The position numbers were made by a program, and so were the translations under genes. 64,000 bases of DNA from Chiloscyllium plagiosum (lineage: Eukaryota). Below the pieces are notes generated by a model. The model was given only the letters and a program-made list of their open reading frames with translations. It searched no databases and was not told the DNA's origin. Location of the stretch: contig NC_057752.1 in assembly GCF_004010195.1 (NCBI RefSeq), positions 5,385,223 through 5,449,222 of the forward strand, in the 5' to 3' direction. Positions 2,222 to 62,027 of the stretch are shown in pieces. The first letter of the stretch is position 1. Each line of letters begins with the position of its first letter.

Positions 2222-2632
2222 GGAGACAGGCCGCCTACTTGTGGAACGTTTCAGAGAACACCTCTGGGGCACCCGCACCAACCAACCCAACCGCCCCATG
2301 GCTGAACACTTTAACTCCCCCTCCCACTCCGCCAAGGACATGCAGGTCCTTGGCCTCCTCCATCGCCAGACCATGGCAACGCGACGTCTGGAGGAGCCCT
2401 CCAACCACAAGGGATGAATGCAGATTTCTCCAGCTTATCACCCTCCCCTTAACCTCCTTCCCCCTATCACATTCCCAATGCCCCTCCCCCAAGTTCCTCC
2501 TCCCTACTTTTTATCTTAGCCTGCTTGGCACACCTTCCTCATTCTTGAAGAGGGGCTTATGCCCGAAACGTCGATTCTCCTGCTCCTTGGATGCTGCCTG
2601 ACCTGCTGCGCTTTTCCAGCAACACATTTTTC
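2222..2632 (+). mobile_element. 5'-truncated Penelope-like element (GIY-YIG C-terminal part and 3' end with hammerhead motif)
   Basis: IGETGRLLVERFREHL...PMAEHFNSPSHS; exact 18-bp direct repeat AGTTCTAGTGGTCATTGG at 2204-2221 and 2633-2650; TTGAAGA-GGGGCTTATGCCC-GAAACGTC near 2545-2572. Confidence 0.85.
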
Positions 2633-8162: not shown

Positions 8163-11100
8163 GGTCAGAAGTCACATGACACCAAGTTATAGTCCAATGG
8201 ATTTATTTGAAATCCCAAGCTTTCAGAGTACTGCTCCTTTGTCAGATGAAGTGAAGAGAAGCACACGGACACAGAATTTATAGGCAGAGAGCGAAAGATC
8301 ATATAAATGTGTGAGTGGAGTGTCAACAGGCTGAATAAAAAGTCTCTGCGGGTGATCAAAAGTGTCAGATGTGAGAGTAAAGTGTCAGCAGCTGAATAGT
8401 AAGTGAAGGGATGACCTATGATCCGATTAATTGAAGCAGAGATAATTACAAAAAATAAGACGGTGCTGGAGACAAATCAAATGGCTGGAATAAGATGATA
8501 GGTATAAGAGTCACGTGGCGAAGGTTGAACCAAAGTAACAGGTAATCCAAAACTACAAACTAATTAAGGTAGAGAGATCATGATAATTTATCAATGTGGT
8601 ATTGTCAAAATAGGACAGTAAGAAAGATTTTACAATAGAGAGTACAGTCTGGTTACCCCTAGTGCGACATGGACCCAAGATCACAGTTGAGGCCATCTTC
8701 ATGGGTACGGAACTTGGCTATCAGTTTTGCTCGGCAATTCTGCATTGTTGTGTGTCTCTAAGGCTGCCTTCGAGGGTGCTTACCCGAAGATAGGAGGCCG
8801 AATACCCTTGACTGCTGAGGTGTTCCCCGACTGGGAGGGAGCATTCTTGACAGGCGATTGTTGTGCGGCGCCCATTTATCCATTGTAGTAACGCCTGCAT
8901 GGTCTTGTCAATAAACCGTGCCTCAGGGCATCCTGGCCTGTAGTGACAGCATTGGCCGAGTCACATGAACATCTGCACTGTACGTATGGGTGGTGTTCCC
9001 ATAGGTGATGAGTGTCAATGTCCATGATCTGCATGTCTTGCAAAGATTGCCGTGGCAGAATTGTGGTCGATGCTGTCCTGAAGGCTGGGTAGTTTGCTGG
9101 AAACGATGGTCTGTTTAAGGTTTGATGGTTGTTTGAAGGCGAAAGGTGGAGGCGTAGAGATGATCATGGCGAGATGTTCGTTGTCATTCTTGACGTATTG
9201 AAGGCTGCGAAGGACATGGTGTAGTGTTTCTGCTCCAGGTGAAGGGTACTGTATTGATCGTGTTCTGTGTCTTGTCTTCTGAGGCGGTTGTTGTGGCTTT
9301 TTGCTGTGGCACATGAGAACTGGTGATTAATCAGTTGAGCGTCATCGTACCCTGTTCTTATGAGCGGGATGCGATCTTCAATTCATCGATTGCCAGTTCC
9401 GATGTGCCACAGTGAAGAACTTCAACAACCTTCTCAGAAGACAGACACAGAACATGACCAATCGAGTACCCTCTGTCCAGTACTTCCCCAGAGCAGAGAA
9501 ACTCTGCCGCGTTCTTTGCGAAGATCATCTCTACACCTCCACTTCTCGCCTTCAAACAACTGCCAAACCTTAAATAGACGATCATTAGCAGCAAACTGCC
9601 AAGCCTTCAGGACAGCATCAACCACAACACCACACAATCCTGCCACAGCAACCTCTGCAAAAAATACAGATCAGCGACATGGATACACTCATTACACGTG
9701 GGAACGCCACCCACGTTTACGTGGCAGATACTCCTGTGACTCGGCCAATGGTGCCAACCTCATACGCGTTCGGCAAGGATGCCCTGAGGCATGGTTTATT
9801 GGCAAGACCATGCAGGCACTACAACGGATGAATGGACACCGCACAACAATCGCCTGACAGGAATGTTCCCTCCCGGTCAAGGGCATTCGGCCTCTGATCT
9901 TCGGGTAAGTGTCCTCCAAGGCAGCCTTTGAGATACTCCACAACGCAGAATCACCAAGCAGAAACTGATCGCCAAGTTCTGTACCCATGAAGATGGCCTC
10001 AACTGTGATCTTGGGTTCATGTTGCACTCCATGTAACCCCACCATACTGTACTGTATTGTAAAATCTTCCTTATTGTCCTGTTTTGACGATACCACGTTG
10101 ATAAATTGTTATGATCTCTCAACTTTAATTATTTTGTACAGTTTTGGGTTACTTGTTACTTTGATTTGACCTTCAGCATGCGACTCTTAGACCTATCATC
10201 ATATTTGAGCCATTTGATTTGTCTCCAACACCATCTTTCTTTTAATTTTTTGTAATTATCTCTGCTTCAATTAATCGGATCATAAGTCATCCCTTCACTT
10301 GCTATTCAGCTGTTGACACTTGATCACCCGCAGAGACTTATTATTCAACCTGTCGACACTCCACTCACACTATTTGTATGATCTTTCAAACTGTCTGCCG
10401 ATTTCTGTGTCTGTGCTTCTCTTCACTTCACCACCTGATAAGAGGAGCAGCACTCTCCTTTCAGAATGGCAGGCGGTGACCAGTGGGGTACCGCAGGGAT
10501 CAGTGCTGGGACCGCAGCTTTTTACAATATATATTAATGATATAGAAAATGGTGTTAATAGTAACATTAGCAAATTTGCTGATGATACAAAGCTGGGTGG
10601 CAGGGTGAAATGTGAGGAGGATGTTAGGAGATTACAGGGTGACCTGGACAGGTTAGGTAAGTGGACAGATGCATGGCTGATGCAGTTTAATGTGGATAAA
10701 TGTATGGTTATCCACTTTGGTGGCAAGAACAGGAAGGCAGATTACTACCTAAATGGAGTCAAATTAGGTGAAGGGGCAGTACAAAGTGATCTGGGTGTTC
10801 TTGTACACCAGTCAATGAAGGCAAGCTTGCAGGTACAGCAGGTAGTGAAGGAAACTAATAGCATGCTGGCCTTCATAACAAGAGGGATTGCGTATAGAAG
10901 CAAAGAGGTTCTTCTGCAGCTGTACAGGGCCCTGGTGAGACCGCACCTGAATATTGTGTGCAGTTCTGGTCTCCAAATTTGAGGAAAGACATTCTGGCTA
11001 CTGAGGGAGTGCAGCGTAGGTTGACTAGGTCAATTCCTGGAATGGCGGGACTATCTTATGTTGAAAGATTGGAGCGACTGGGCTTGTATACCCTTGAGTT

Positions 11101-22567: not shown

Positions 22568-23568
22568 CCTGAACCCTTAGTGTGAGCCTTTTTAACCAGT
22601 CAACTCTAGCCCAATGTCTTCAGCGTTCTCAATCTGTTGAGTTGATTGTCCTGTAGGATATGTTACCAGGAGAATTCTGAGCAAAACTAGACCAAGCTCA
22701 TCACAAACCCAGTAAAAAGAGCATGCCTCCTTCATATCAAAGCAGCTGCTCCTGCTCATCTCTAGAGCACTCATTCACACTAAAGGTTTACAAGATCTCG
22801 GGAGCAGGCGGTTCAATGGGATAGCCAGTGTGGCAGAAGTCAGAAGGTAGGCAACTAGAGAAGGAGCCCACAAGTCAGATGGTCAGCATGAGGGAAAGAA
22901 ATGTCAGAAGCAGTGGAAACCACTCTTAAATGGAGGCAATCAGGTGTCATGGCCCTGCACTCAGACTGGTAAGAAACAACACTACAAAAACTTTGAGTCG
23001 TCCCTAAATGAGAATACAGGACCCATTAATTTAGTGTTAAAGAAGAACAGTGGAAAACGAGGGCTTCCTGTATAGGAACTTCAAGGGAATAACTGGTTTA
23101 TGTCCACCGACATGTGGTTAAACACAATTAAAATACAGTTAACATAAGATTTGTTAGGAAGAGCCTCTGGGAGCATGCAATATGGATAACCTGACTGCTA
23201 GTTGGGCTCGGAGGTCAAATTACCAGGAGCTATTACGCAATCCAATGTTCCTCTCCCTGGAATGTAGAAGATTTAAGTAGTGATTTGGTCCAAGATTTCA
23301 AAAACTTCAGGTTGGGATTGTTGGACTAGAGAACGCATAGTCTGAGTGAGAACCAGACTTTTCAAGAATTTATTTAGGAAGCACCTCTACACATGCGTAT
23401 CTCTTTTACAAATGGCGATTGATGCTGGACCAGTTGTATTAAGGGGCATGGGGAAAAGGTGGGTTTATGGAGTTCGTTCTCAGACCAGTCATGTTCATTG
23501 ATTGATGGAACTGGCTTGAGGATTTTGTTTAGATTACTTGATTGATGGAACTGGCTTGAGGATTTTGT

Positions 23569-23871
23569 TTAGATTACTTAGTGTGGAAACAGGCCCTTCA
23601 GCCCAACAAGTCCACACCGACCCTCCGAAGAGCAACCCACCCAGACCCATTCCCCTACATTTACCCCTTCACCTAACACTATGGGCAATTTAGCATGGCC
23701 AATTCACCTAACCTGCACATTTTTGGACTGTGGGAGGAAACCTGAGCACCCAGGGGAAACCCACGCAGACACTGGGAGAATGTGCAAACTCCACGCAGAG
23801 AGTTGCCTGAGGCGGGAATTGAACCCGGGTCTTGGGTGGCACAGTGGTTAGCACTGCTGCCTCACAGCGCC
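23569..23871 (-). mobile_element. tRNA-derived V-SINE/HE1-like element with an inverted 5' head, inserted in a CR1 3' tail
   Basis: The minus strand reads GACCCGGGTTCAATTCCC (B box) ... TGGAGTTTGCACATTCTCCC; the A-box head GGTGGCACAGTGGTTAGCACTGCTGCCTCACAGCGCCA is on + at about 23834-23871. Confidence 0.85.
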
Positions 23872-35614: not shown

Positions 35615-37790
35615 ATTAGAGAAACTATGGGCCTGGCAGCATCTGGAGAGAAAGCAGAGTTAACATTTTGGGTCCAGTGACCCTCATTCAGAACTGACGG
35701 TAGCTAGAAAAAGATTGGCATTTTTGTTGAAGGTGTAGTGTGGGGAGGAGTAAACAATAGGTGGAGATGGAATGCAGAGAGGGAGAGAGAGACAACAGCA
35801 GTTGGGTAGCCAAAGAAATGGGTAAACATCAGACTGAGAGAATCAATAGCTATTAATGAGGACAATTAATAGCTGAGACAGGATTGTTTGTGCTAGCAGC
35901 CCAAGTGGTATAATGTCCTAGTGTGTGTGGTTTCAGGTTAGGAAATGGGAGAAAGTGTTCAGGTCTTAAAATTATTGAACTTAATATGGAGTCCTAGAGG
36001 CCGCTGTGACCCCGAGTGGAAAATGAGATGTTGTTCTTCCAGTTTGTGCCGAGGCTCATCAGAGCACTGCATTAAGCCAGAGAAACAGATGTTGGCCTGG
36101 GAGCAAGGTGGTGTTCAGGTGGCAGGCTACCAGAAACTCAGGGTCATTTTTGCAGATATTCTGCAAAGCGGTTACCAAGTCTGTCATTTGTCTCCTGGGT
36201 GTAGAGGCGAACCACATTGTGAGCAGTAAATACAGTAGACTGGATTGAATGAAGTGCAAGTAAATCGCTGCTTCACTTGGAAGGTGTGTCAGGATCTTCG
36301 ATGATGGGGAGGTGAACGGGCAAGTGTTACACCTTCTGTGATTACATGGGAAGTGCCTTAAGGGAATGGGGAGTCATTGAGAACGGCGGAAGAATGGATC
36401 ACGGTATTCTGGAGGGAATAGTCCCTGTGGAAGGCTGACAAGGGAGGAGAGGGGAATGTATGTCTGGTGGTGCCATCCCGCTGGAGATTGCATGAATGTC
36501 AGCTAATGATCCTTTGCCTGGTGGATGCTGATGAGCTAGCACATGAGGGCAAGGGGGACTCTATTGGTGTTGTGGGAAGGAAGAGAGGGTTTGATGGCCA
36601 AAGTGCCCAAGATAGATGGGACATGGCTGAGGGCACAGTTGACCATGGTGGTGAGGAATCCTCAATTGTGGAAGAAAGGTGGTAATTTCAGAGGCCCCCT
36701 TGGAGAAGTTGGTATCCTTGGAACAGATGAGACTGAGAACCTGGGAGAATGAAATAGGCTTTTCAGGAAGTGGGGTGAGTGGATGTATAGCCTAAGTAAC
36801 TGTGGAAGTCAGTGGGTTTGTAGTGGATATCAGTGGCCATTATCCCCATAAATGGAAACCTGTCAAGAAAGGGAAGGGAGGAGTCAGAGATGGGCCAGAT
36901 GAAGGTGAGAGCAGGTTGGAAATTGGAAGCGCAATTGAATAATATATCCAATTCCAGACGAGAGAGGGAAGCAGTACCGAATGATGTTATTGGTGTACCA
37001 GAGAAACAGTTGTGGGTGAGGGCCAGCGTAGGACTGGAACAAGAAATGTTCCATGTACCCACAAAGGGGCAGGCGTACCTGGGGCCCATGCGGGTACCCA
37101 TTGCCACACCTTGATCTGAAGGGTGTGACTGGAGTTAAAGGAGTTGTTCAAAGTGAGGTTGAGCTTGTCCAGGCATAGTGTGGTCCAAGATGAGGATAGT
37201 TCAGGCCTTTTGTCCATGAAGAAGCAGAGAGTTCTGAGACCATCTTAAGGGGGGGTGGACATGTAAAGGGATTGCACATCCATGGTGAAGAGAAGGCTGC
37301 TGGAGCCGGTAAATTGCAAATTCTGAAACTAATGTGAAGCATCATGGGTGTAAGTGGGAAGGGACTAGACAAGGGGAGAAAATAATCAAGGTAGAAAAGG
37401 ATACATTCTGTGGGGCAGGAACAGGCAGAAACAGAAGGTCTGCCTAGGCGGACCTGTTTGTGGGTTTTGGGAAGGAGGTAGAAGTGGGCTATGTGGGTTT
37501 GGGGGACTGTGAGCATGGCGACAGTGGTAGGAGGATGGGTGGGAGAGATCCCCTGATGAAATGGGATTCGTAATTGTTGTGGATGCAGTAGCTTGATCCT
37601 CAATGGTAAAGTCCTGGTCCAGGGAGAGAGAGGAGGTGGTGTCAGAGAGCTGCTGCTCAGCCTCAGCAATGTAGAGGTCAGGATGCCAGGCAACAACAGC
37701 ACCATCCTTGTCAGCAGGCTTGATTACCAAGCTGTTGTTGGATCTGAGAGCACAGAATGCAGTCAGTCAGAAGTAAAGGGAGTGCAGAGA
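35615..37790 (-). mobile_element. Decayed Penelope-like element (RT region and 3' end)
   Basis: VIKPADKDGAVV, FYLLPKTHK...GRP.VS.CSCPTE, AMGTRMGP.YAC.FVG, LPFLD, DIHYKPTDFHSYL in frameshifted ORFs; decayed hammerhead-like AGTT-CTGAATGA-GGGTCACTGGACCC-AAAATGTT-AACT at ~35658-35695 (-). Confidence 0.85.
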
Positions 37791-46787: not shown

Positions 46788-47485
46788 GTAACAAAGGAGG
46801 ATGGGTGCTGAATGTCAGCCGAGTTCTTCAGGTGAAAAATCTGATCAAGCACAATCTGTCGACTTGAGAGATGGAGGAAAATAAGGCAGGCAAAGTGAAA
46901 GCATGCAAATACTGGAAATGCCCAGCAGTGAAATGTCCACATCTGGAGTTCAGAGGATGGTTCATATTTCAGGTTGATCTTTTCGTGAGCATGGGATATA
47001 ATCTAAATGCCCAGTTCTGTTGATATTTTGCATTGTTGGATTTTTTTTTAAATCATTGGAGATCAGATTGAAGGTTTTTGGAATGATAATATTAGATTGC
47101 AGGGAATTATATCCTTAATATTAAATCATAGGGAAATTGGAATAATTTCAGTGTGCCAATAAGGGATCCAGTCAAGGTAAAATGGAACTGAAGATTTGCA
47201 GGAAGGAAATATGGGGTAAGAGTGCAATCCCAACTGGTGACTGCAACAAACCTTCTGTATTGCTAAGGACACTTGCACTTTCTAAAGATGTTGAGGTTGG
47301 ATGAATTTTTTTCCATGTTCCCTGAAGTTGTTAGTCACTAATTCTTTTAAACAAGTTGAGTGAGATGTTATTGCTAGGATCTGTTCATTAATAATGTCTT
47401 AAAAGTATTCCCATTTTAAAGGGAACTCTGACTAAAGATTGCTGCTTTCCATTATTTATATCCACAGTTGCATATTTTTTTCTAG

Positions 47486-49845
47486 ACAATCAGGAGTTGG
47501 TAACCCGCAAGGATTTCACCCAAGAAGCTTACCAGCTGCTCAACAACAACAGTGGCAGCAGCAGTTAGCACAAAGACTTCCTGGACAGACTCGTTTCCAG
47601 CAACCTGAGGCTTTGCATGTTAGCAGGCCTGCAATGACCATGCAAATGAACAACACAACTGGACTTAACCCTCGACTTGCCACTCAAATCACTTTTCAAA
47701 ATGCACAGCAACAAATTGTGGCTTCACCAATTCCTGTGAGCCCTCAGTACATAGAACTGAGACACAATTCCCAACGTTTACCCATTGCTGCCCAATTGAC
47801 ACAGCGTGCTCCCCAGCCAAGACCGCGTCTTCCACTACCAAATCAAGAAATCAATCAGTATGTGCACCAAATGCAAGGATGCAAGGTCATGTCAAGGGGT
47901 CCAGGTACACCTTTGTCGCAGTCACCAGTTGGGATTGCACTCTTGCCCCAGCAGAATATCTCTGCTCAGTTGCCGCCATCTCCTCAATCAGTGGAAGTAT
48001 CAAATGCCCAACAGCATATCCAAACAAAAGAGCCTTTAGAATCTACTGCACAAGTTCAATCACAACAGGTGTTTCAAACTACTTCATCGACATCATCCTC
48101 TCCTAGTTGCTGCTCAGACAGTTTGAAAGATAGCTCTGTATCCTTTCCACTTAACTCTGTCCCATCGATGTCCAGTGTAGTTACAGAGCATGCAGATTTA
48201 GATCCTCGGAAAATCCCTTGTGATGATTCAGTAGAAAAAGCCTTAGATGAAGAACTTGACTCGCCTAAAGAGCTAGATGAAGAAGATGACCTTGCCAATC
48301 TGAGTCTTGACCCAGACAGTAAGACAGATGATGAGCTTGGTAACCTTGATAACCTAGAAACCAATGACCCCCATCTAGATGATCTCTTGAAGTGTGAAGA
48401 GTTTGATCTACTGGCCTATACTGACCCTGAGCTAGACACAGGTGACAAAAAGGACATTTTTACAGAGCAGTTACGTTTAGTAGAATCTGCAAATGAGAAG
48501 GCAGAGGAAGGTCAGGATATTCTAGCTCATCAAGATGCTGTAAACCCTGCAATTAAAGGTACACTCAATAAAGTTAACAAATCTGATTTGGAAAAAACGG
48601 CAAAGGGAGATGAGCGTGAAAAAACATTGCCTAAATCCAATGTTGTTGCAGATACACTGTCTACATCCGATAGGGTTATGTGTGGATCAGTGAATAATGT
48701 CACTTCAGAGACAAACAGTAACAATCAGTGCAGTGATCCAGTTAACAGGTCCCCATCTACTGACGATCCTCCCAAACCTACTCTTGATCTAGTACTGAAG
48801 GTTGAGGAGAATATCTCCAAAAATTCACCCTGCCAATTTGTAGCAAATACATCTGACGCACAGACAGTTTTGATAAAATCAGAAAGTCAGTCAAAGGGAA
48901 ATGGTGAGAGAGGGGCAGCATCAGTGCTACTCAGTATTGGAACTGGCCTTAGTGTTAACGTAAGTGTAGCGCAATGTCATAGCACTGAATGTACTACCAG
49001 TGGAACACAAACTACTGCTCAAAGTGGTACAGTTGCTTCAAGTGGTCATGGGACTACACATATTTCCAGCAATGGTCATTCTAACTTGGATTTAGAAAGT
49101 AAACCTTGTACATCTTCGGCTCAGTTAGTATCAAAGATACCACTAGCTGCCCAGTCTAGACCAACAATAGATAAACTTGGACTAGACGAGATGTGCCATC
49201 ACGTGTCCAGTATGGAACCAAAACGTCGATCTGTGGATGACCTTGTTAAGGTAGAGAGTTCCCTGGAAGCAAGTGAGCTTCCACTACTCCTCCATGACTT
49301 ACTTGAGCAAGAGAAAATGGAATTGCAGCAGCAACAATTGGGAGGATCACAGTGTATACCACCGCAACAACCGCAGCAACATTCAACACCAAAGGCTCTC
49401 CAAGTTCTGCAACAACTTGAGGTTTCACATCAACAGAGTCATCCAGGACTTTCTCAACACCTTTCAACAACACAGCAATCTCAGCACCTTGAGGGGCCAT
49501 CACAAAATTTAAACCTACCACAACAACATATCCTGGGAGTGATACAGCATCATCACTTGGGGATCCCAAGATCTCTTCCATCTTCCCAGCAGCAACAGTT
49601 GACAGCGTCACAGCAACGGCTTGGAACCTCACCACATGTCGTCATGTCGCAGCAGCAGCATGTGGCAACAGGACAACACGCACCGCAGCAGTTGGTGGCT
49701 ACGCAACAGAATCAGCATATGACCTCACCACAATTGCTGCCAACTCAGCAGTTGGCTGTTTCGCAGTTGGGCATCATGCAGCAGACGCAGCAAGTTGTGA
49801 TGCAACAGCAGCAACAATTAGCCAATGCTTTCTTCCCAGATACAG
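47486..49845 (+). CDS. KMT2D: KMT2D large exon (~exon 34), 2360 nt, phase 2->1; acidic LxxLL block and Q-rich region
   Basis: Lies within ORF 47439..49877; ttctag|ACAATC ... ACAG|gtacag; QYIELRHN, DDELGNLDNLETNDPHLDDLL, ELPLLLHDLLEQEK, NAFFPDT. Confidence 0.95.
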
Positions 49846-51487
49846 GTACAGTAGGTAATGAGCAAACTTGCAAATAATTTCTTTTTGGTTGTCTGGAATT
49901 GGCTGATGCACTAAATTAGCAATATAATTGTTTGAATGCTGCTTTGTGTAGTTCATGTGGGTAGTAATAGGTTTTCTATGTATCTTGGCCATTGTTCCTG
50001 CTGCACGCAGCACCAAAGAAAAACAAGATATACCAAGTCATAGATCTTGTTGTTTATGGAATCTTGGTGTCGCAAAATGACTGTTGCATTTACTGTCACT
50101 GTGCTTCAAAGTAATTCATAATGTGTGAAGTGCTTTGAGACTTTTGAGAGAAGTGATTATGCACTACATGAGTGCAAGTCACTTTGTTTTTTCCCATTAT
50201 TTTCAATTGTGTTCCATTCGGGTGGTGGTCTTGTGTTCATTATAAAGTTCATTTTATCTTTCCACCATTGCAATTTCCGATATTTAATTTATTCAAACTG
50301 AATTTCTGCTTTGCACTACTGTTTAGTCAAGCTTCATTTTTTTTTAGTGATGAAAATTATGTAATTCAATAAGAATTTGAGCAAGTTGCCATGAACAAAT
50401 GGCTGTCGTTGTTACAATTACCATCACGCTGTAGAAATAAAAAAGGGAAACTGTAATTATTAGATAATATGCAAGGCAACATTTAACATTGTAAATAAAT
50501 CTGTGTCCTTCTCGAATAACTAGGGCTAACTGCTGATGGTCAACTGGTTCAATTCTTGTTTCCTTGTATTCTGGACCCATCACAGTTCAGTCATAGTTCA
50601 TTTTGTTCGGTCACCATAATTCTTTCCATTCCTCATCCTCGACTAGCTGTAGGAACGTTGTCCGTTTGTGATATTCAAAGGAAAGCATACACTGTCGTCT
50701 TGTGAAAAATGTCGTGATATTGTGGCTAGGTGATGCTGCATGTGATCTCCTCTTGCAACATATGGACTCCGGGATCTCTGATACTGTACTAATGCAACAT
50801 TTTCCAGGAAATCTTTGGTGTTTGTATCATATCCTGTCAACAAAAGTTTTGAGTTATCCTTTGTTCAGGTGTAGGTTTGACGCAATAGCAATGTATATTC
50901 CATTAATCAGTTGCATCCAGATTTTTGTATCACTTTTCAGGAAGATTTATACTAAGAGATAAAACACAAAACGAGTTAAACTAGTGCTATTCCCTTTCAA
51001 GTGGAGCATTCAGAAGAAAGAAAAGGTATGATGTTTAGTTTGTTTTTATAGAAGGAAAGTTTTTACATGTTGATTGTAAAAGTTGTTCAATCAGCTGTAA
51101 TGTTGCTCTCATGACTGTAACAATTTTTATGTTAGTTGATAGAGTGGTTAGTCCTGTATAATGGGTGTTATGGGTTCCTGCATCTAATGACTGTGGACTC
51201 CCTGCACCAACTAGCCGAGACTATCCTGCTGCATGCATACTCTGAATTCAGGAACTGGAACTGCTTAGAGTTGAGTGTGAACCTTGCACCCTACTCAGAG
51301 GCAGGGATATGAGCACAGCTGAAGTCGTGCTCCCTGTTTTTTATATCTCTGAAATCTGAACAATGATCAATCCAATCTCTCTCTGTTGATCATGTGTGTT
51401 CTCTCCCACATGCAGACATTCTTGTCCCTCTCAAGTCATTGTGAGTGTATGCCTGTACCAATACCTACAACAGGCTTTAAAATCTTT

Positions 51488-52600
51488 ATTTTATTCACTC
51501 ATGGGATGTGATTGATTCTGTCTGGGCCAGCATTTATTACCCTTGAGACAGTGGTTATGAGCAACTTTCTTGAGCCACTGCAAATCATTTGGTGTCAGTA
51601 CACCCACAGTGCTCTTAGGGAGGGAGTTCCAGGATTTTGACCCAGCAACACTGAAGAAATGGTTATATATTTCCAAATCAGGATGATGAGCATTTTGGAT
51701 GGTAACTTGCAGGGGGTGGTGTTCCCATGTATTTGCTGCCCTGTTGTGACACTTAATGGTCGTGGTTTTGAAAGGAAAACAAAATCAGAAATTACTGGGA
51801 AAAACTCAGCAGATCTGGCAGCATTTGTGCAGAGAAATCAGAGTTAATTTTTCAGGTCCAATGACCCTTCATCATTTGTTTCTGATTTTTGGTATCCGCA
51901 GTTTCTTTTTTTGTTGTTGTGTGGGTTTGGAAGGAGTTGTTTTGAATTTTTGCAGTACATCTTAAGGTACAATGTTTCTGTTGAGTGTCGGTGGTGGAGA
52001 GAGTGAACCTTGTTGAATGTGGTGCAAATTAAGTGGATGCTTGCGTGTTGGAACTGCACTTGTCTCAGCAAGTGGGGAGTATTCCATCACTTTACTGACT
52101 TGTGCCTTTCAGATGGTGGGCAGGCTCCGTCAGTCTTGAGGCCACTTACCAACCCATACCTGGATATTGTCCAAGTTTTGCTTCATTTGCATGTGGACTG
52201 TTTCAGTACCTGAGGAGACCTGTATGGTTCTGAAGATTGTACAGTCATGAGCTAGCATCCCCAGTCCTGACCTTAAGATGGAAGGAAGGTCATTGAAGCA
52301 GTTGAAGAAGGTTGAGCCTCAGACACTATCCTGACGAACTCCTGCAGCAATGTCCTGGAGCTGAGGTGACTGATCTACAACAACTATGGCCATCTTCTTG
52401 TGTGCCAGTTATAACTCCAACCATTGAAGAACTTTTCCCTTGGCTTGTGTGCTGTGTGGTAATCACCAGGAGATCTCCATGCCTATGTTTGACCTGATAC
52501 CATGAGACTTCATGGGGCCCAGGATTCATGTTTAGGACTCAGAGCACCTCCCTCCTAACTCTATACCACTGTGCCTCCACATCTACTGCGTTGTCATGAC
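51488..52600 (-). mobile_element. Decayed CR1-group LINE fragments with a Penelope-type remnant at ~51775-51905
   Basis: FFSVAGSKSWNSLP (51491..51676 -); IAAGV.Q.SV-like motif on - near 52322-52352. Confidence 0.6.
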
Positions 52601-53525
52601 TGTCCAGTTTCATTCTTTTTAAACTCTGTTGTGGGCTCTGCAACTGTGTGCTTTGCTTGGTAACTTCAGCAGGCAGTTAAGAGTCAACCACGTTTCTGTG
52701 GGCCTGGAGTCACGTGGAGGCCAGGCAAAGGTGACCACCTTAAAAGACATTAATGAGCCAGATGAGTTTTTCCATCGATCAACAATGGTTTCATGGTCAT
52801 CACTAGACATTTAATTTCAGGATTTTAAAATTTCAAATTCCTAAATCCTCCAGAACCTGGGCCTCTGAATTATTAGGCTAGTAATAAAACTGAGGCTATC
52901 GCCACCCCTCAAATTATTATCTCTGCAAAATAGCATTTGTAATTGCAGACCTTTTTAGTCACTGTATAGATAAGTGAGAGTTCTCTTTTCCATTGTTTTG
53001 TGCAATCATGCACACTTAAAAGGATGTCTTATTTATGTATGACTTACATGAAGGCTTTCAGTTTGCAGTGCGCTAGTGCACGGAGCAAACATTGAATGGG
53101 GTATCATGATAAATGGTATTGCTTGAGTTGAATTGCCTTCAAGTTGGCTAACTGCAAAAGGAAGATTAGAATCCAGTTGATCCACTTCGGTAGACTTCGT
53201 AATTTATTACCTGTGACATGCAGGTCTAGAGTATTCCAGACTATTATGAGTGATTACCCAGCCAGTTTGGTTTATTAATGGGAATTGGAGAATTGACCTG
53301 TCGTGGGAGGTTATGCTTTGCTCTCAATATCTCTGCAAACTACCCACCTAATGGCTTGGAGGATTCTACATTGACATGCAGCAAGGACCTTACCAGTATG
53401 CTCTGCTGGTAGGTTGAAAGATTTTGACTGATTGGGGTCCAAATATGCTCCTGCTTAGATTTGGAAATTCCTAAGACTTGACTGTTGTCAATGTGGGTAC
53501 AAGCAGTTTGGACTGAGTTGTGCAG

Positions 53526-55330
53526 CACAGAAACCAACCCTTCGGTCCAACTTGGCCATGCAACCAGATATCCTAAATTAATCTTGTCTCATTTGCCAGC
53601 ATTTGGCCCATATCCCTCTAAACCCTTCCTATTCATGTACCCATCCAGATGCCTTTTAAATGTTGTAATTGTAACAGCCTCCACCACTTCCTCTGGCAAC
53701 TTATTCATGATGCACATCATCCTCTGTGTGAAAATGTTGCCCCTCAGGTCCTTTTAAATCTTTGTGTCAACTTACACCAATGTCCTCTAAGTTTGGACTC
53801 TCCTATCCTGGGAAAAATACCTTGTCTATTTTCCCTATCCATGCCTGTCATGATTTTATAAATCTCTAATAAGGTCACCCCCTTCAGCTTATGACACTCC
53901 AGGGAAAACAGCCCTAGCCTATTCAACCTCTCCCTGTAGCTCAAGCCCTCCACCCCTGTCAACATCCTTGTAAATCTTTTCTGAACCCTTTCAAATTTCA
54001 CAACATCCTTCAGGAGGGAGACCAGATTCGCACAATATACTACAAACGTGGCCTAACCAATGTCCTGTTCAGCCACAAGTGAAGTTCCAACTCCTAATCT
54101 CAATACCCTGACTAATAAAGGGAAGTGTACCAAATATTGCCTTCACTACTCTATCTACCTGTGACACCACTTTCAAGGAACTATGAACCTGTACCCCAAG
54201 GTCTCTTTGTTCAGCAACACTCCCTAGGGCCTTACCATTAAGTGTATACTTTCTGCCCTGATTTACCTTTCCAAAATGCATCTCCCATTTGTCTAAATTA
54301 AACTCCACCTGCCACTCCATGGCCCAATGGCCCATCTGATGAAGGTCCCATTGTTCTCTGACGTAACTTTCTTCGCTGTCCACTACACCTCCAATTTTGG
54401 TGTCATCTCCAAGTTTACTAGCCATACTTCTATATTGACATCCAAATCGTGTACATAAATTAGAAAAAGCAGTGGACCCAGCACTGATCCTTGTGGCACA
54501 CCACTGGTCACAGGCTTCCAGTCATCCTCTGTCTCTTACCTTCAAGCCAATTTTGTATCCAAATGGCTAGGTCTCCCTGATTTCCATGTGATCTAACCTT
54601 GCTAACCATGTGGAACCTTGTTGTTCGCCTTGCTGAAGCCTATGTAGGCAACATCCACTGCTCTAATTTCTTCAGTCTTTGTCACTTTAAAAAAACTCAA
54701 GTTAGTGAGACACTATTTTGCGCGCACACAGCCATACTGATTACCCTAATCAGGCCTTTCCTTTCCAAATGCATGTGAATCATGTTTCTCAGAATCTCCT
54801 CCAACAACTTGTCCACCAATGATGTCAGATTCACCAGTCTGTAGTTCCCTGACTTTTCTTTTATAATAGCACACGCCAGCCAATCCCCAGTCTTCCGGCA
54901 CCTCACCTGCGGATGGAGATGGTCCAAATATCTCAGCAAAGAGCCCAGCAATTACTTCCCTAGTTTCTCAGAGTTCTCTGGTACATCTGATCAGATCCTG
55001 GGGATTTATCCACCTTTGAGTTTTAAGACATCCAGCACCACTTCTAATATGGAGGATTTTCAAGACATCACTATGCATTTCTCCAAGTTCTCTAGCTTTT
55101 ATATCCTTCTCCACAGTAAATATTGATGTGAAATACTTATTTAGTATCTCACCCATCTGCAGTTCCATACACAGGCTGCCCTTTTGATCTTCAAGGAGCC
55201 CTATTCTCTCCCTAGTCACTCTTTTGTCCTTAATATATTTGTGGAATCACTTTGGATTTTTCTTAACCCTATTTGCCAAAGCTATCTCATGTGCCCTTTT
55301 TTCCCTCCTGATTTCCCTTGAGTATATTAC
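53526..55330 (-). mobile_element. CR1 LINE, decayed, antisense
   Basis: [57 protein letters not shown]...LSYRERLNRLGLFSLE. Confidence 0.92.
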
Positions 55331-56658
55331 TACTGCTGTTGTATTCCTCTAGTTGACCATGCAGTATTAATAGAAACACAATCTTTTGCTGTCTGTTTAC
55401 TCTGACTTGTTTTGCAGACTATGCAAACGCAGTGCTGGGTACGCCAGTAAAATAGGGAGATTAATGTGTCAAATCTGCAGAAATTACTCCTATTTAAAAA
55501 AAACAATATTTCTCATTACTCAGAACAACATGCTAAAATAGGAAAACCTAATCAAAAATGGCGATAAGGGTCTTTCATTTATCAGTCCAGAGATCATTGG
55601 CATAATGATCTCTGGACTGCAATAATTTGCAATAATGAGCAAAAAACTTAATTTACATAAAATAACGATATTCTGCATTGGCTCTCCTATATTTGTATGA
55701 TATGTTCTCTGATTCCACTATTATCACTTTTTTTTCCTTTGAGACACATACAAATGCTTGTTGGCAAAGGCTGGTTTGAGGGTGTATCTCGCATATTCTG
55801 GAGGCAGTATACTAGGGAATTGGACCATGCAGTATTACCAGTTTAACTATTTAAATAAGCCATTCAATGAGTTGCCATAAAAAGGCAGACAGTCCCTCCT
55901 CGGCCTCTTGATCTACTGGCAACTAGAAATATTGATTTTAAGACATGGAAGATGACATCATTTGGATATTTTGGGCCAGACCATCATAAAAACAGTGGTA
56001 TTCACTAAGTTGTCTAATGATGGTGTGTACTAGCTCCAGGCAACTTGACCCAGCATTGGAAGCTTTCCTCTGGATCTCATGTCAATCTTACCATGAATTC
56101 TTCTTGGCTGTATTCTTATGGAGTATATCTGAAGGAGGAGCAAGAACAAGCCATTCAGCCCCTCAAACCTGTTCTGCAAATCAATGGGTGATCAGATTGC
56201 TTCACATTCTTGCCTGTCCTCATTAATCTTTCATTCCCTTATTTATCAAGAATCCACCCACCTCTACCAAAGGTACTCAAATTTCTGAGGGAAGAAGTAG
56301 TTCTCAACTATCCTAAACCGATGACCCCTTAATTTAAAGCAGTGCTTCTCTTCTCCCCCCCCCCCCCCCCCCCCCCCCACCTCAGTTCTAGGTCTTCCCA
56401 CAAAAGGAACCATCCTTTTCATAATCACCCTGTCAAGACTTCTCATGATCTTGTATGCTTCAGTCAAGATACATTGTATTCTCCTAAACTCCAGATACAA
56501 GCCTAGTCTGTCAAACTTTTCCTCCTAAAGCAACCTGCCTCTTCCAGATATTAGTCTAGTAAACAGTCTCTGACTTGCTTCCAATGCATTGCATTCTATC
56601 TTACACCAGGTGACCAATAATGTCTCACCACCCTGTTTAACTGAAACATAATGTCCAT

Positions 56659-56924
56659 TATGTTTCCTGAGCCTGAAGGCTCACTGATGATGTTACCTAG
56701 TATGGTGGTGAAACATCTGAAAACGAACCTTGCAGCTCAGCGAGCAAACCTACATCTAGAACTTCAACCTGAGCTACAAATCTTCTCAAAACTCGCTAAC
56801 ACCTATGAGTACAATACGCTAAAACTGGCCCAAAAGTGGGAAAGGCTCACCGAAGACGTTACCTAGTATGGTGATGACACGTCAGAAAATGAACCTTGCA
56901 GCTCAGTGAGCAAACCTACATCCA
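56659..56924 (+). mobile_element. Small non-autonomous Penelope/retrozyme-like insert with two hammerhead-containing direct repeats
   Basis: 15-bp TSD AAACATAATGTCCAT at 56644-56658 and 56925-56939; ~81-bp direct repeats starting at 56676 and 56842. Confidence 0.75.
56681..56720 (+). ncRNA. Minimal type I hammerhead ribozyme motif (stem III mutated)
   Basis: TCA-CTGATGA-TGTTACC-TAGTAT-GGTGGT-GAAAC-ATC-TGA: intact CUGANGA, GAAA and UH core, 3-bp stem I (TCA/TGA), hairpin stem II. Confidence 0.6.
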
Positions 56925-58750
56925 AAACATAATGTCCATACTTTGGTATTCAACTCCCCTCACTGCAAATTATAACATGCTGTTAGCTTTCATAATTACT
57001 TGTACCTGCAGGCTGACCATTTGAGATTCATGCACTTGGAAACCCAGGACCCTGTGCATTCACAGAATTCTGGAATCTCACCATTTAGATAATATGCTTT
57101 TTATTCTTCCTGCCAAAATGGACATTTTCCCATTTTCCTTTATGGTACTGTATTTGCTAGATCTTTTCCCATTCACTTAGCTGCATCCCTTTGTAGTCTT
57201 GTGCTTTTCTACTTATCTTTGTCATCAGCAAATTTAGCAACCATGCCTTCCACCTTTTCTTCCATCATTTATGCAAGTTGTAAGGAGTTGAGACCCCCAC
57301 ACTGATCCCTGTACCATATGATTTGTTGCACCTTACCAACCAGAAAATTACTCACTTAATATCTTCTGTTAGCTTGCCAATCTTCTCTTCATGCCGACAT
57401 GGTAACCCCTACACCAAGAGCCTTTTTCTCTACAATAATCTTTGACATGCTTTTGAGAAATCCAAGCATAATACATCAACCAATTTCTCCTATTTCCACA
57501 GCATTTGGTACTTCCTCAACAACTGCAAAAATTTGGTTCAACGTGATTTCCATTTCACAAAACTATATTGACTATACCTGATTACCTCAAACTTGTCCAA
57601 GTGTTCCTGCTATAACATCTTTAATTATACTTTCTCACATTTTCCCTGTGCGAGATGTTAAGATAATAGGCCTATAGTTTTTGCTTTCTGTCTCCCTTTG
57701 TGAATAAAGGAGTTAAATTGCTAATTTTTTAATCTAATGGAACCTTCCTTGAATCTAGGGAATCTTGGAAAATGGGGACCGAGGCATCTACTCGCTCTTG
57801 GGGCCCGTTTTGTAGGATCATAACAGATTTGGCCTTGAAAGCAAATTTATCGACATGGATCTAATTCAATTAGGAGGACATACAGCTATGCCCGTTGGAC
57901 TAAATCTAACTTTGTAGCTGTCCACAATCTCTTGAGATAAGACACAGCATTTTTATGTCCACTGCACCTGATTGAGGACAAAATGTGGGCTGCTGTGCCA
58001 CGGAGAGGTGGTAATCTGCCCTGTCTCAACAGCAAAATTTATGACTGATTTATTGCTCCACAGACTGGCACATCCCATTTGATGACATTTCCACTAATTA
58101 TAGTAACTGCAGTACACATTACAGTCATGACTTTTGAGTTGCTCGTAGAAGATGTACTGGAATATGTATAATAGCAAAAGTTGACAGCATGGGTGCTATT
58201 CCAGGATAGCTTCTAACTTGTAAGCAATGTCAGAATTGCCAACGGTGCTATGAGCTAGTCTCTTTTGAAAAAGAAAGATGAGGGCAGAGTATATTGGTGG
58301 ATAAGCACTACTGCTGTTAGGCGGTAGTGTGGGGAGAAGAAAAAAAGAAAAAAAAAGTACATTGGTGGAAGGCATTTTGCAGGAGGGGACGTGTTCAAAT
58401 TGTAAGAGTGAAGTGACCTGGCAGACCATTAGAGGCCTGGACCAATATTTTGTGTGATTAGCTCGAACTGTGGTTGGTATAAACTAAAAGGAAAAGCTTG
58501 GGAGTAATCTGCCTTTGCAAGGGAAATCAAACCTAAGCTGAAGAGAAGGTAGAAGAGTTTTTTTAAAAAAAGAGACCGGTTGAAACAGCAGGATTTGAGC
58601 AAAAGAATTTAGGACATGGAAAGGAGGTAAAATTGCAGATTCAAGGAATTCATTTTTCTAAATGTGATATGACTCCAGTTTGTCCTGGTTTTAGGTCATG
58701 AAATAGATCAAGTTAGTTTAAGTGTAGGCAGGTTTTAGAAAATGTGGTAA

Positions 58751-58878
58751 ATTCCTGATGAAGGGCTTATGCCCGAAATGGCTCTCCTGCTCCTTGGATG
58801 CTGTTTGACCAGCTGTGCTTTTCCAGTACTGCACTTCTGGACTCTGATCTCCAGCATCTGCAGTCCTCACTTTCTCCT
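58751..58878 (+). mobile_element. Solo Penelope-type terminal remnant with a partial hammerhead core
   Basis: CTGATGA-AGGGCTTATGCCC-GAAA at 58755-58778, then CTCCTGCTCCTTGGATGCTG, shared with the 2222-2632 element; the cleavage triplet is lost. Confidence 0.75.
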
Positions 58879-59546
58879 ATGTTTAGAAAACAATAACTGC
58901 AATATTACTTAATGTAAGAAAAACCAAGGAAAGATATTCTTGACTGGAAAATAGCAAATTATAATATGATGAATATGTAAATTTATCCGTGATCAAGTGG
59001 AAGGGAAAGAAACCTGGATTACCAGTGAGGATTTTTTTGAAGTGAGTATTTGGAAAAGCACACACTAAGAACATGAATGTAGAACGCTACAGGTGCTGTA
59101 TGTTTGAAATAAAAAGAAATACGGGAAATAATCAGGTCAGACAGTGTCTGTGGAGACGAATGCTTCAGATTGGTGGTAAGAAAACAAGGGAGGCTTCTGA
59201 TTCCGTTGGCATTTCGTCCAAAAGTCAATTTTATCACATGTTACTAAGCACATGGGGGGAAAAAAAGAGTTAACTTGGGCCAGTCAGCATAGATTTCTAA
59301 AATGCAACTTAGCCTTGACAGAAATAAAAATTAAAAAAAGTTGAAAAAGCTCAAGTCTGGTAGCATCTGTAGAGAAACAGTTAACATTTCAGGCTGGATG
59401 TTCTTTCAGCAAATGCTACCAGGCTAGTTTAGTTTTTCCAGGACAATTCTTATTTCCCATCCCCAGCATCTACAATACTTTTTATAGTATTCTCTGAATA
59501 CGTCTAAGGATAAAGAAAATTGTGGTTTCGTGGCATTCAAAAACAT

Positions 59547-59751
59547 GCTCGTGCTGCTCCTTCGCTCGCGCACGCGCTCGCTGTTACTCGGGCGGGCACG
59601 CTCTCTCTCTCCCCCGCCCCCCGGCGCGGGCTCGCTGTCGCCCTCTCGACCTCGCCCCTCATCGTGTCTCGCTGTCGCTCGCGCGCGCCCTTGCCTCCGC
59701 GCGCTCTCGCTCTCCGCACCGCCTACTCGCGCACGCTCGCCCCCGCGCGCA
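59547..59751. repeat. C-rich, CpG-dense low-complexity island (CTCG/CGCG/CT-like)
   Basis: About 38 CpG by hand count in ~205 bp, very few A, sharp edges against AT-rich intron. Confidence 0.85.
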
Positions 59752-61654
59752 GTTTTAGGCTTCCCGTATGAAGAGTATATAGAAGCAATAAGAGAGAGTG
59801 CAGTATAAATTTACTGGCTTGATTTTAAGTTTCTTACATGAAAAGTAGCACTCGTGATATTGTCAGTTTAATTGGTGAACTGCAAGGCTAATTTTGGATC
59901 AGTTGTAATATGATTTTACATTAAGGCAGGATGGTATTTCTTCTGCAATCGCTTTCCACTTTTGTCTAATAGTTTTATTTGTTGCTATGAGTCAGAGCGA
60001 AATATCGTCTCCAATCATACATGTACTTGGGGTTGCAAGCAGATCTCATGCAATTTAGACTATTTTGACAGACACTACAGTCCATTAAGGCAATGTCTGG
60101 TGGTTGAGATGAACGATCCTACAAAGAGTAAGGAATCCTCTGATACCTTAGCAGCATTCCTCCCTTAATCAGCACCACTTAAAGCAGAATAACAATTTAT
60201 TTGTGTTGATTGGTGCAAAATAGTTCTGTCATTTCTCATAGACATTCTTAGTTTATTTTACTTGAAAATGTTTGGGAGGTTTGAGAGACTTGACAAAGCA
60301 CAGTGTAACTACAAGTTATTTTGCCAGAAAGAACACCATGTGGCTAGTTAAATGCCATTTTCTCCGGTTTATAGTTGCTTTCTGTTTATTTCTCAATTTT
60401 CAAATTATGCACATGCAAGGCTATTATTTGTAGCAAAAACAAGTTACTGGGGGCACTCAGCTGGTCTGGCAGCATCTGTGGGAAGAAAGCAGATAACATT
60501 TAAGGTCCAGTGATATTCAATGTTCAACTCCCTGGCGAGGCAGCACCTTTTGATAGACTGATGCTATACCACAGTTGGTATTCTGGCCCTTTTGCAGGGG
60601 CTACCCTTATCCTAAATCGCTTGCACTGTGGTAACCTTCTGGAGAGTGGATGAGTGCAATGAGGAAGATGGATTGTTTGTCTGATAGGGCCGCCTTTATT
60701 TTTTACGTGACTTCCAAGCCCTCAGGCAAAATTATATTTGGTGATGGGAGGGAAGTTAGTTTTTTAAAAAATTTGGCTTCATATTTAAATTAATTGAAGT
60801 TGTGCAAGCCCTAGTGTTTTATGGAATTAAGAGGTAGCCTGCAGCATCACCTATCTACAATATTATAACAGCATTTTCACATGATTGTTCAGAATGTCGT
60901 TTCCTCAGAACTTATCGAGGTAGGCTATGCTCCTATGAGCTGTGAAGGATGAGCATTTTTTAATGGTGATCTAACCAGGGAGGTAACATGTCTTGATCTT
61001 GACCACTATTTTCCCCTGTCTGTCTCTGTGCTATGGCTGGTTTCCTTTTTAAAAGACTCATTTTGCATGTAAACCTTAATAGCAGTATTTAATCTCCATT
61101 TTAGGGCAATTATATGTATTTTCATTTTTGACCAAAGTCCTTAACTTGGTAGGAAATTGACTGGTCACTACCATGTCATATGGATGTCTTGAAGCATCTT
61201 TAAACTTGATGTATTATACAGTTTGAAACAATTTTGACTACTAAAATTGGTTGATTTTTGTCAGAATTAATATCCAGAGTGAGAATTCTGTTGTTGAGCC
61301 TTTTTTTGAAAGGGTCTATTATCTTGAAAGGCTTTTCAACCATAAAAAACAACCAAATATACCAATTTCAAATCTGCTTTTCACCTGAGTAAGTTGAAAC
61401 TCCAGGCCAGAGTTCAACAATATTATACTTTCATGGTACTTGATTCTCCCCTCCACCCCCAGCCCTCTCCTCTTGTGGTAGGTATTCCTTTTGAGATCTT
61501 GCAAATTGTGCAAAACACCAAGTTTCACAACACAACATCTACAATTTTGTACCTGTTTTTAAGGATTGTTTCTCATTTGAAATGCTCAGTTTTGTAATCA
61601 GAGTTCTAAAATGCAGCATTTTGAACAGTTTTACCAGATTCTTTTTCTTTGTAG

Positions 61655-61778
61655 ATTTGGATAAATTTGCAGCTGATGATATCATGGACCCTATTGCCAA
61701 GGCAAAAATGGTGGCTTTGAAGGGAATTAAAAAAGTCATGGCACAAGGAAACATCACTGTAGCACCAGGGATGAATAG
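61655..61778 (+). CDS. KMT2D: KMT2D exon (~exon 35), 124 nt, phase 1->2
   Basis: ttgtag|ATTTGG ... ATAG|gtagat; (D)LDKFAADDIMDPIAKAKMVALKGIKKVMAQGNITVAPGMN(R). Confidence 0.96.
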
Positions 61779-62027
61779 GTAGATTTTACTGTCATTTGTT
61801 TTTATTGATTTCATGCAGAATGATTTGTATTTGTCAAAAAAAACCTTTGGCAAAAGTAATAAGGACAAATGAAAATATCCACGACCCAACATGGGAATTG
61901 AGTTGGTGAAAATCAGGTTTAAACTTGAAAACATTTTGCATTTTTAATTTTAAAATTTACAATTGTAGCAAATGAAAAGTCGCTTGATAGATGTTCATGA
62001 TTAATGTTTTTTAAAACGAATTTTTAG

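Follow-up and report, generated by a model that had tools for sequence, protein, structure and literature searches.

Introduction

Penelope insertions have been described as partial tandems that carry a terminal repeat (pLTR) with the first codons and a 30-40-bp tail, and that show target-site duplications (TSDs), 5' palindromes and microhomology deletions (PMC3846280, PMC8557442). In the Poseidon element of Anolis carolinensis (PAc; Frangieh et al. 2024, PMC11167929), the open reading frame (ORF) starts at stem II of a hammerhead, whose cut falls 26 bp past the start codon; reverse transcription has internal start sites at +111-118 and, one 30-40-bp tail earlier, at a second position, and the targets are A/T-rich. 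Minimal hammerheads have been reported in metazoan Penelope-like elements and are predicted to be functional only as dimers (Cervera and De la Pena 2014, PMC4209133). Tandem hammerhead repeats that give circles characterize the animal non-LTR (long terminal repeat) retrozymes (PMC7229834), which have been traced to Penelope termini, and of which the active ones are defined as at least two consecutive Tandem Repeats Finder (TRF) units with complete motifs (bioRxiv 10.64898/2026.07.22.740005). Here we examine a 266-bp insert with two hammerhead motifs in a 64,000-nt stretch of the genome of Chiloscyllium plagiosum (NCBI RefSeq assembly GCF_004010195.1, contig NC_057752.1, positions 5,385,223 to 5,449,222, forward strand), the whole of which we call the window. 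The insert had been read, in an original prediction made from the letters alone, as a member of a retrozyme-like family with a 166-nt monomer. We find that it is almost certainly the dead remnant of a Poseidon-type element, and likely a one-off insertion by-product rather than part of a family of small self-cutting RNA circles.

Anatomy of the Insert and Its Coding Spacer

The insert, with a GC content of 45%, is bracketed by an exact 15-nt direct repeat, and all the coordinates given for it in the original prediction were verified. The internal direct repeats, first put at ~81 bp, extend over 87 nt at a spacing of 166 with 87% identity, and the insert comprises 1.5 units of 166 nt. The two copies differ at 10 of the 82 element bases compared. 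Two features had escaped the earlier description: the spacer is crossed by a reading frame, and the 5' junction carries a pair of fold-back arms. The features of the insert are as follows, with element positions relative to the ATG.

56644 to 56658, plus strand: left copy of the 15-bp TSD; exact repeat, A/T-rich, within the minus-strand reading frame of the host long interspersed nuclear element (LINE)
56659 to 56666, no strand assigned: fold-back arm 1, an inverted target copy; 56656-56666 and 56643-56653 are exact reverse complements around a 2-nt loop
56668 to 56674, no strand assigned: fold-back arm 2; it and 56677-56683 are exact reverse complements around a 2-nt loop
56673 to 56689, plus strand: terminal repeat (pLTR) stub, -17 to -1; family contigs start matching at 56673/56677
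56684 to 56717, plus strand: minimal type I hammerhead, copy 1; intact core, broken stem III palindrome, predicted cut after +28
56690 to 56843, plus strand: start of the Penelope/Poseidon reading frame, codons 1-51; the ATG overlaps the last core base of the hammerhead and stem II
56730 to 56779, plus strand: stem-loop 3' of the hammerhead, predicted by RNAfold; its A/C-rich loop contains the family's first common 3' end (+67 to +69)
56842 to 56843, plus strand: internal junction, from +154 of the reading frame to -13 of the terminal repeat; 1-2 shared A, and the direct repeat begins here
56843 to 56924, plus strand: second terminal piece, -13 to +69; its end coincides with the first common 3' end of the family
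56850 to 56883, plus strand: minimal type I hammerhead, copy 2; core damaged at two positions, first stem I pair unpaired
56925 to 56939, plus strand: right copy of the 15-bp TSD; exact repeat

In element coordinates the insert therefore runs from -17 to +154 and then from -13 to +69, the two pieces being joined through a microhomology of 1-2 nt. No exact repeat of at least 15 nt arose in 500 shuffles of 56300-57300, while 3 of the 63 real 1-kb tiles of the window contain one, the insert tile among them. TRF reported six arrays in the window, none of them at the insert, and a self-search of the 64-kb window returned no further copy of the insert's family.

The spacer between the repeats is coding. 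The peptide read from the ATG at 56690 is identical at 23 of 51 positions (45%) to residues 1-51 of P0008 (824 aa; E = 1e-12) and also matches the start of P0009 (832 aa; E = 3e-6). In the opposite direction, a tblastn search of the whole window with P0008 recovered 56690-56842 (E = 4e-8). None of 1000 shuffles reached the score of the whole peptide, and the same was true (0/1000) for codons 24-51, the part that extends beyond the repeat. Both proteins consist of a single frame with a central RVT_1 domain; the C-terminal GIY-YIG endonuclease expected of an autonomous partner is absent from the insert. They were found by way of an exhaustive phmmer search with six hits, among which P0003 and P0006 align along the peptide, P0003 leading to P0008 and P0009. 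The other hits (P0001, P0002, P0004 and P0005) are unrelated, mostly repetitive proteins and were dropped, and two of the four follow-up hits, P0007 and P0010, are chimeric-looking gene models that were left unused. A word-based search with a 54-aa peptide against longer proteins yielded 0 of 7 candidates.

Besides this homology to a reverse transcriptase (RT) frame, the traits of Penelope/Poseidon membership found here include a type I hammerhead over the start codon, two 3' ends with a 30-40-bp tail and A/T-rich targets, and a partial-tandem, inverted 5' structure with a TSD. The presumed placement in Poseidon rather than Neptune is based on the N-terminus and the layout. Elsewhere in the window, decayed Penelope-type RT fragments occur at 37409-37760 on the minus strand, matching P0008 (E = 5e-6) and P0009 (E = 1e-5).

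Two Damaged Hammerheads

Both hammerheads, 166 nt apart, parse as originally proposed. In copy 1 the core (56684-56690) is intact; the motif also has a bulged base, a stem II with 6 of 6 base pairs (G-U allowed) and GAAA, its cut is predicted after 56717, and position 16.2 is changed to A. In copy 2, with a predicted cut after 56883, U4 has become C and A14 has become C, and the first base pair of stem I is unpaired. From these lesions we infer that the insert is probably inactive, as had been suspected; little or no self-cleavage is predicted for this copy. A scan for degenerate hammerheads gave just two sites in the window, both in the insert, while five shuffles gave 0, 1, 1, 0 and 0. Rfam, at E up to 10, named no hammerhead, its two matches being unrelated (E = 2.4 and 6.7).

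As the original prediction held, these motifs match the minimal hammerheads described for metazoan Penelope-like elements (PMC4209133). They share with them the bulged base after core position 9, the long stem II, the G-C at 10.1-11.1 in the intact form and the palindromic 15.2-16.2 without a real helix III. They differ in that both copies are damaged and in that the palindrome belongs to a minority, as judged from position 56715. The letters proposed for an intact ancestor do occur in the family: in run X1, 99% of the depth at 56708 is A, 93% at 56851 is T and 98% at 56878 is A (the contig runs are described below). The G at 56715 that makes the palindrome exists in the family, but in just 25-30% of the depth on copy 1, in all three contig runs. 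This could reflect heavy CpG decay, or else the spread of a large subfamily in which the hammerhead had been weakened. Other repeat families in the window have hammerhead-like ends with different stem II sequences, at 2545-2580 (plus strand), 51845-51880 (minus) and 8210-8250 (minus), the last two being degenerate.

The Amplified Family Consists of End Stubs

Contigs of three related organisms (A, B and C; runs X1, X12 and X18) and one RNA run (X21) were mapped on 56450-57150 at 80% likeness. Observations on junctions come from 24 pieces shown of 61,295, and depth does not equal copy number. Depth peaks at 56762-56785, at about 27,000-34,000 times that of the flank, and drops from this peak 477-, 732- and 1036-fold at 56810-56833, to 0.10-0.21%, in the three contig runs. 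Loose ends cluster behind 56756 and 56924 (+67, +69) and at 56795-56800 (+106 to +111), again in all three; they are long, A/T-rich and mutually unlike (agreement 0.36-0.42). The two clusters are the known two-site tail signature of Penelope, and the insert's own 3' end, at +69, coincides with one of them. Upstream of 56673/56677 the family runs into a different, partly conserved sequence (agreement 0.52-0.55), which is not the end of the 166-nt unit. The amplified form of the family is a very abundant end stub of ~85-125 nt.

The resemblance to Anolis Poseidon is close. In both, the ORF runs from hammerhead stem II with the core before the start codon, the cut falls ~26-28 nt into the frame, and two 3' ends ~40 nt apart, near +69 and +110, go with A/T-rich targets (PMC11167929). 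Compared by description rather than by DNA, the shark-type family differs in ending at +67/+69 and +106 to +111, against +111-118 in Anolis, and this copy retains 51 codons only.

Other observations concern the age and the source of this particular copy. Contigs of organisms A and C (X1 contig 1, X18 contig 17) span the left outer junction. The right outer junction is crossed in B and C with just 21 and 24 letters inside the insert, short of the 31-letter rule. The insertion predates the split of organisms A and C, and probably also that of B. Divergence from the window is ~3% in the flank contigs of B and C, and the two copies disagree with one another at 10/82 positions; the insertion is therefore old. 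An empty-site joint (a skip of 281) was absent from the 15 of 214 joints shown. Both copies have G at 56732/56898, where C makes up 89-90% of the X1 family depth; this rare shared letter (~10% of the depth) points to a single source for both. An X1 contig of depth 783 has an inversion joint exactly at 56673 (-17), which suggests a repeated inverted-head form that breaks where copy 1 does. This opposite-strand joint (56673 to 56734) recurs in one RNA read and is unseen in the other two organisms. The X12 joints that go back 162 were rejected as evidence of tandem arrays, since such joints arise when ordinary family copies map first on copy 2 and then on copy 1.

In the RNA run X21, a poly(A) single-cell library of which ~2% was read, 461 reads mapped, 459 of them partially and 4 at 99% identity or more; they derive from other family copies. 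They show no pile-up of starts or ends, in a library that would miss small circles and is uninformative on them. Coming from other loci, the family reads are strand-biased by about 5 to 1 (230 vs 44 at 56738-56761), the orientation of the library not being established. A survey of sequencing runs listed no RNA run as a carrier. DNA pattern scans of viral, prokaryote-genome and metagenome contigs returned nothing, and related-locus scans confirmed 0 of 421 metagenome and 0 of 195 viral stretches. Literature searches, with Repbase and Dfam outside their reach, brought up no paper describing the shark family, so that its novelty is not established.

How the Insert Arose

We lean, by a modest margin of belief, toward a single target-primed insertion of two joined Penelope/Poseidon end-pieces with one RT template switch. 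Taking the observed anatomy, coding homology, family end positions and rarity of the spacer together, we infer the following order of events. An endonuclease would have cut at an A/T-rich site, giving rise to the 15-bp duplication. Reverse transcription would then have begun internally at +69, one of the two common start sites of the family, copied 82 nt and halted at -13. By re-priming through the 1-2 shared A at +154, on the same or a sibling RNA, it would have proceeded to about -17, where two short fold-back syntheses would have linked the 5' end to the target. The outcome would be a 1.5-unit partial tandem with hammerheads 166 nt apart. The copy is old and decayed, and is predicted neither to cleave nor to move.

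The fold-back arms fit in such a sequence of steps with different weight. Perfect 10-bp hairpins with a loop of at most 4 nt have two starts in the whole window, which fits the one 11-bp hairpin of arm 1. Arm 2, weaker on its own given 31 comparable 7-bp hairpin starts in the window, is likely the product of snap-back synthesis of the complementary DNA (cDNA). Template jumps and snap-back 5' junctions have been described for R2 proteins (PMC11371274), and 5' palindromes and TSDs for Penelope (PMC3846280). Each structural feature of the insert belongs to a kind listed for Penelope insertions (PMC3846280, PMC8557442). The insert is unlike those described in that the whole unit measures 266 bp, in its TSD of 15 bp vs 8-10 bp in the rotifer examples, and in its fold-back arms of 7-8 nt, of which one is copied from the target and the other from the element.

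In the main alternative scenario, which we hold to be possible though distinctly less probable, a long copy consisting of the terminal stub, the full frame and the terminal repeat to +69 was inserted, and a microhomology-mediated deletion later removed ~2.3-2.5 kb that began at +155 and ended at -14 of the second repeat. The insert would still be a dead single copy. The residual parts are exactly both ends of a canonical pLTR-ORF-pLTR insertion, internal deletions of this sort have been reported in Penelope copies (PMC3846280), and the rare letter common to 56732/56898 equally fits one source element. The homology at the join, however, is just 1-2 nt, and the endpoint of the deletion must have landed within 4 nt of the truncation of the upstream repeat (-13 vs -17), which is unlikely for random repair. 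We favour the switch because both pieces end at a nearly equal 5' point (-17, -13), and because the X1 inversion joint falls at 56673.

An explanation of the short form as a longer Penelope element collapsed in assembly is very improbable. A collapse between repeats would leave one repeat of homologous sequence, not the start of the frame fused to a second repeat. The bridged left outer junction also speaks against a collapse, as does the best run, which contains 0.64 of the sampled words from a 1-kb stretch. What a collapse would account for is the internal junction, which none of the 24 pieces shown bridges.

Several points weigh against the template-switch reading and the inactive, single-copy status that goes with it. 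Switch and deletion are not readable from a single sequence. The two copies differ at core position 7 (T vs A), where the family is mixed too (39% A in X1), and the difference could mean two different templates. As regards the coding homology, codons 38-51 taken alone are marginal, their score being reached by 14 of 1000 shuffles, and 4 of the 6 phmmer hits were unrelated. A GIY-YIG domain, of which P0008 and P0009 appear to carry the motif, was named in them by none of the Pfam, PDB and PHROGs scans. The internal junction is known, even at this locus, from the window sequence, and being unbridged it only bounds the copy number of the joined form, of which a few further copies may exist. Finally, depth at 56810-56833 is still 26-63 times that of the flank, and may be undercounted, with the spacer lying near the 80% cut-off (26-27 differences over ~160 nt for X12 pieces 13 and 15).

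Retrozyme or Insertion By-Product

This residual depth leaves room for a few dozen copies, and is one of the observations that would suit a low-copy, non-autonomous 166-nt retrozyme, in which Poseidon enzymes would have copied a tandem or circular RNA through 1.5 turns, starting at +69. We consider this improbable. On its side are also the two in-phase hammerheads, the long TSD and the GC content. In a recent survey, the size of vertebrate units ranges from 51 to 972 bp, their sequences match Penelope termini, and the sole chondrichthyan sampled has retrozymes (bioRxiv 10.64898/2026.07.22.740005). The unit further contains most of +20 to +172, the RNA region needed by the Anolis enzyme (PMC11167929). 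In contrast, the spacer accounts for the small share of family depth given above. The contigs that reach it, among the pieces shown, quit the reference at 56830-56843 without entering the second hammerhead; X12 contigs 13 and 15 match through 56843, contig 15 then continuing with 66 unmatched letters and X18 contig 23 with 174. Moreover, the sequence upstream of copy 1 is not a repeat of the unit end, contrary to what a tandem or circular template would give. There is no TRF array at the insert, and both hammerheads are damaged, in a class where 1 of 9 dimers tested cleaved according to the same survey (bioRxiv 10.64898/2026.07.22.740005).

Set against animal non-LTR retrozymes, the insert would pass as retrozyme-like in layout. 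Its two type I hammerheads are in phase and lie close together, its GC content is below 50%, its TSD is long, and it stems from a Penelope terminus. It departs from them in having 1.5 units instead of two or more, damaged hammerheads, the start of a protein frame and no amplification as a unit. Two or more consecutive TRF units, each with a complete hammerhead, were not found at the insert, and neither was a non-coding monomer amplified as a unit, the spacer encoding a protein start, though a few copies of the unit may exist. A GC content below 50% and a TSD of more than 4 bp are present, and are unspecific since ordinary Penelope stubs share both.

The original prediction of a family with a 166-nt monomer is thus not supported, although a rare 166-nt family retains a small probability. 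The unit is an element end plus the first 51 codons, its spacer is rare where the ~85-125-nt stubs are abundant, only 1.5 units exist at a site where TRF is silent, and both hammerheads carry lesions. These findings largely match an outcome that the original prediction had named as refuting it, in which the unit is confined to the ends of long coding Penelope elements. We conclude that the insert is very probably not an amplified unit.

A related idea, to which we likewise give little credence, is that the insert is the fossil of a retrozyme birth, in which a Poseidon RT made one jump from its recurring stop near -13/-17 back to +154. If so, a single step would produce, head to tail, a 166-nt unit whose two hammerheads are in phase and which contains almost all of the cis-acting region that the enzyme needs (+20 to +172 in the Anolis element), read-through of the KMT2D intron could once have freed a 166-nt circle, and a small shark family may exist.

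Host Locus

The surroundings of the insert comprise two further features.

56267 to 57347, minus strand: decayed LINE reverse-transcriptase region broken by the insert, from peptide alignments and RVT_1
49845 to 61638, plus strand: approximate KMT2D intron holding the insert, between the aligned exons, borders unrefined

After in silico deletion of the insert and one duplication, LINE-RT-like peptides from other parts of the window gave minus-strand alignments (E = 6e-13 and 9e-7) that run through the join, and Pfam scored one of these peptides as RVT_1. Because these peptides span the join after removal of the insert, the 15-mer is a TSD within a decayed LINE. The host had been called an old CR1; a decayed LINE reverse transcriptase is borne out by the alignments, while the CR1 label is presumed. 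Two plus-strand exons, at 47481-49844 and 61639-61779, align with a whale-shark KMT2D-like protein (90% and 94%), and the host is accordingly most likely a shark, as first read. As they flank the insert on the same strand, the insert is intronic and sense to KMT2D, in agreement with the earlier reading. The KMT2D exon had no match in PDB.

At 56532, the X1 contig that bridges the left junction departs from the reference with 172 unmatched letters, whereas the contig of organism C continues through. The difference may reflect an insertion/deletion polymorphism within the flanking LINE. A perfect 40-nt tandem duplication lies at 23498-23579.

Significance

The insert is explained by known Penelope biology, and its own significance is small, as one old, damaged insertion of a known class whose stubs are extremely common in the genome. 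It does illustrate that two close hammerheads inside a TSD are insufficient for calling a retrozyme. The shark family shares with Anolis the start-codon-in-hammerhead layout and the two-site 3' ends that were mapped biochemically there, which extends that model to a cartilaginous fish. If copies sharing the internal junction existed, they would show concretely how a single step can lead from Penelope ends to retrozymes, two classes whose connection has until now been argued from their co-occurrence and similar sequence.

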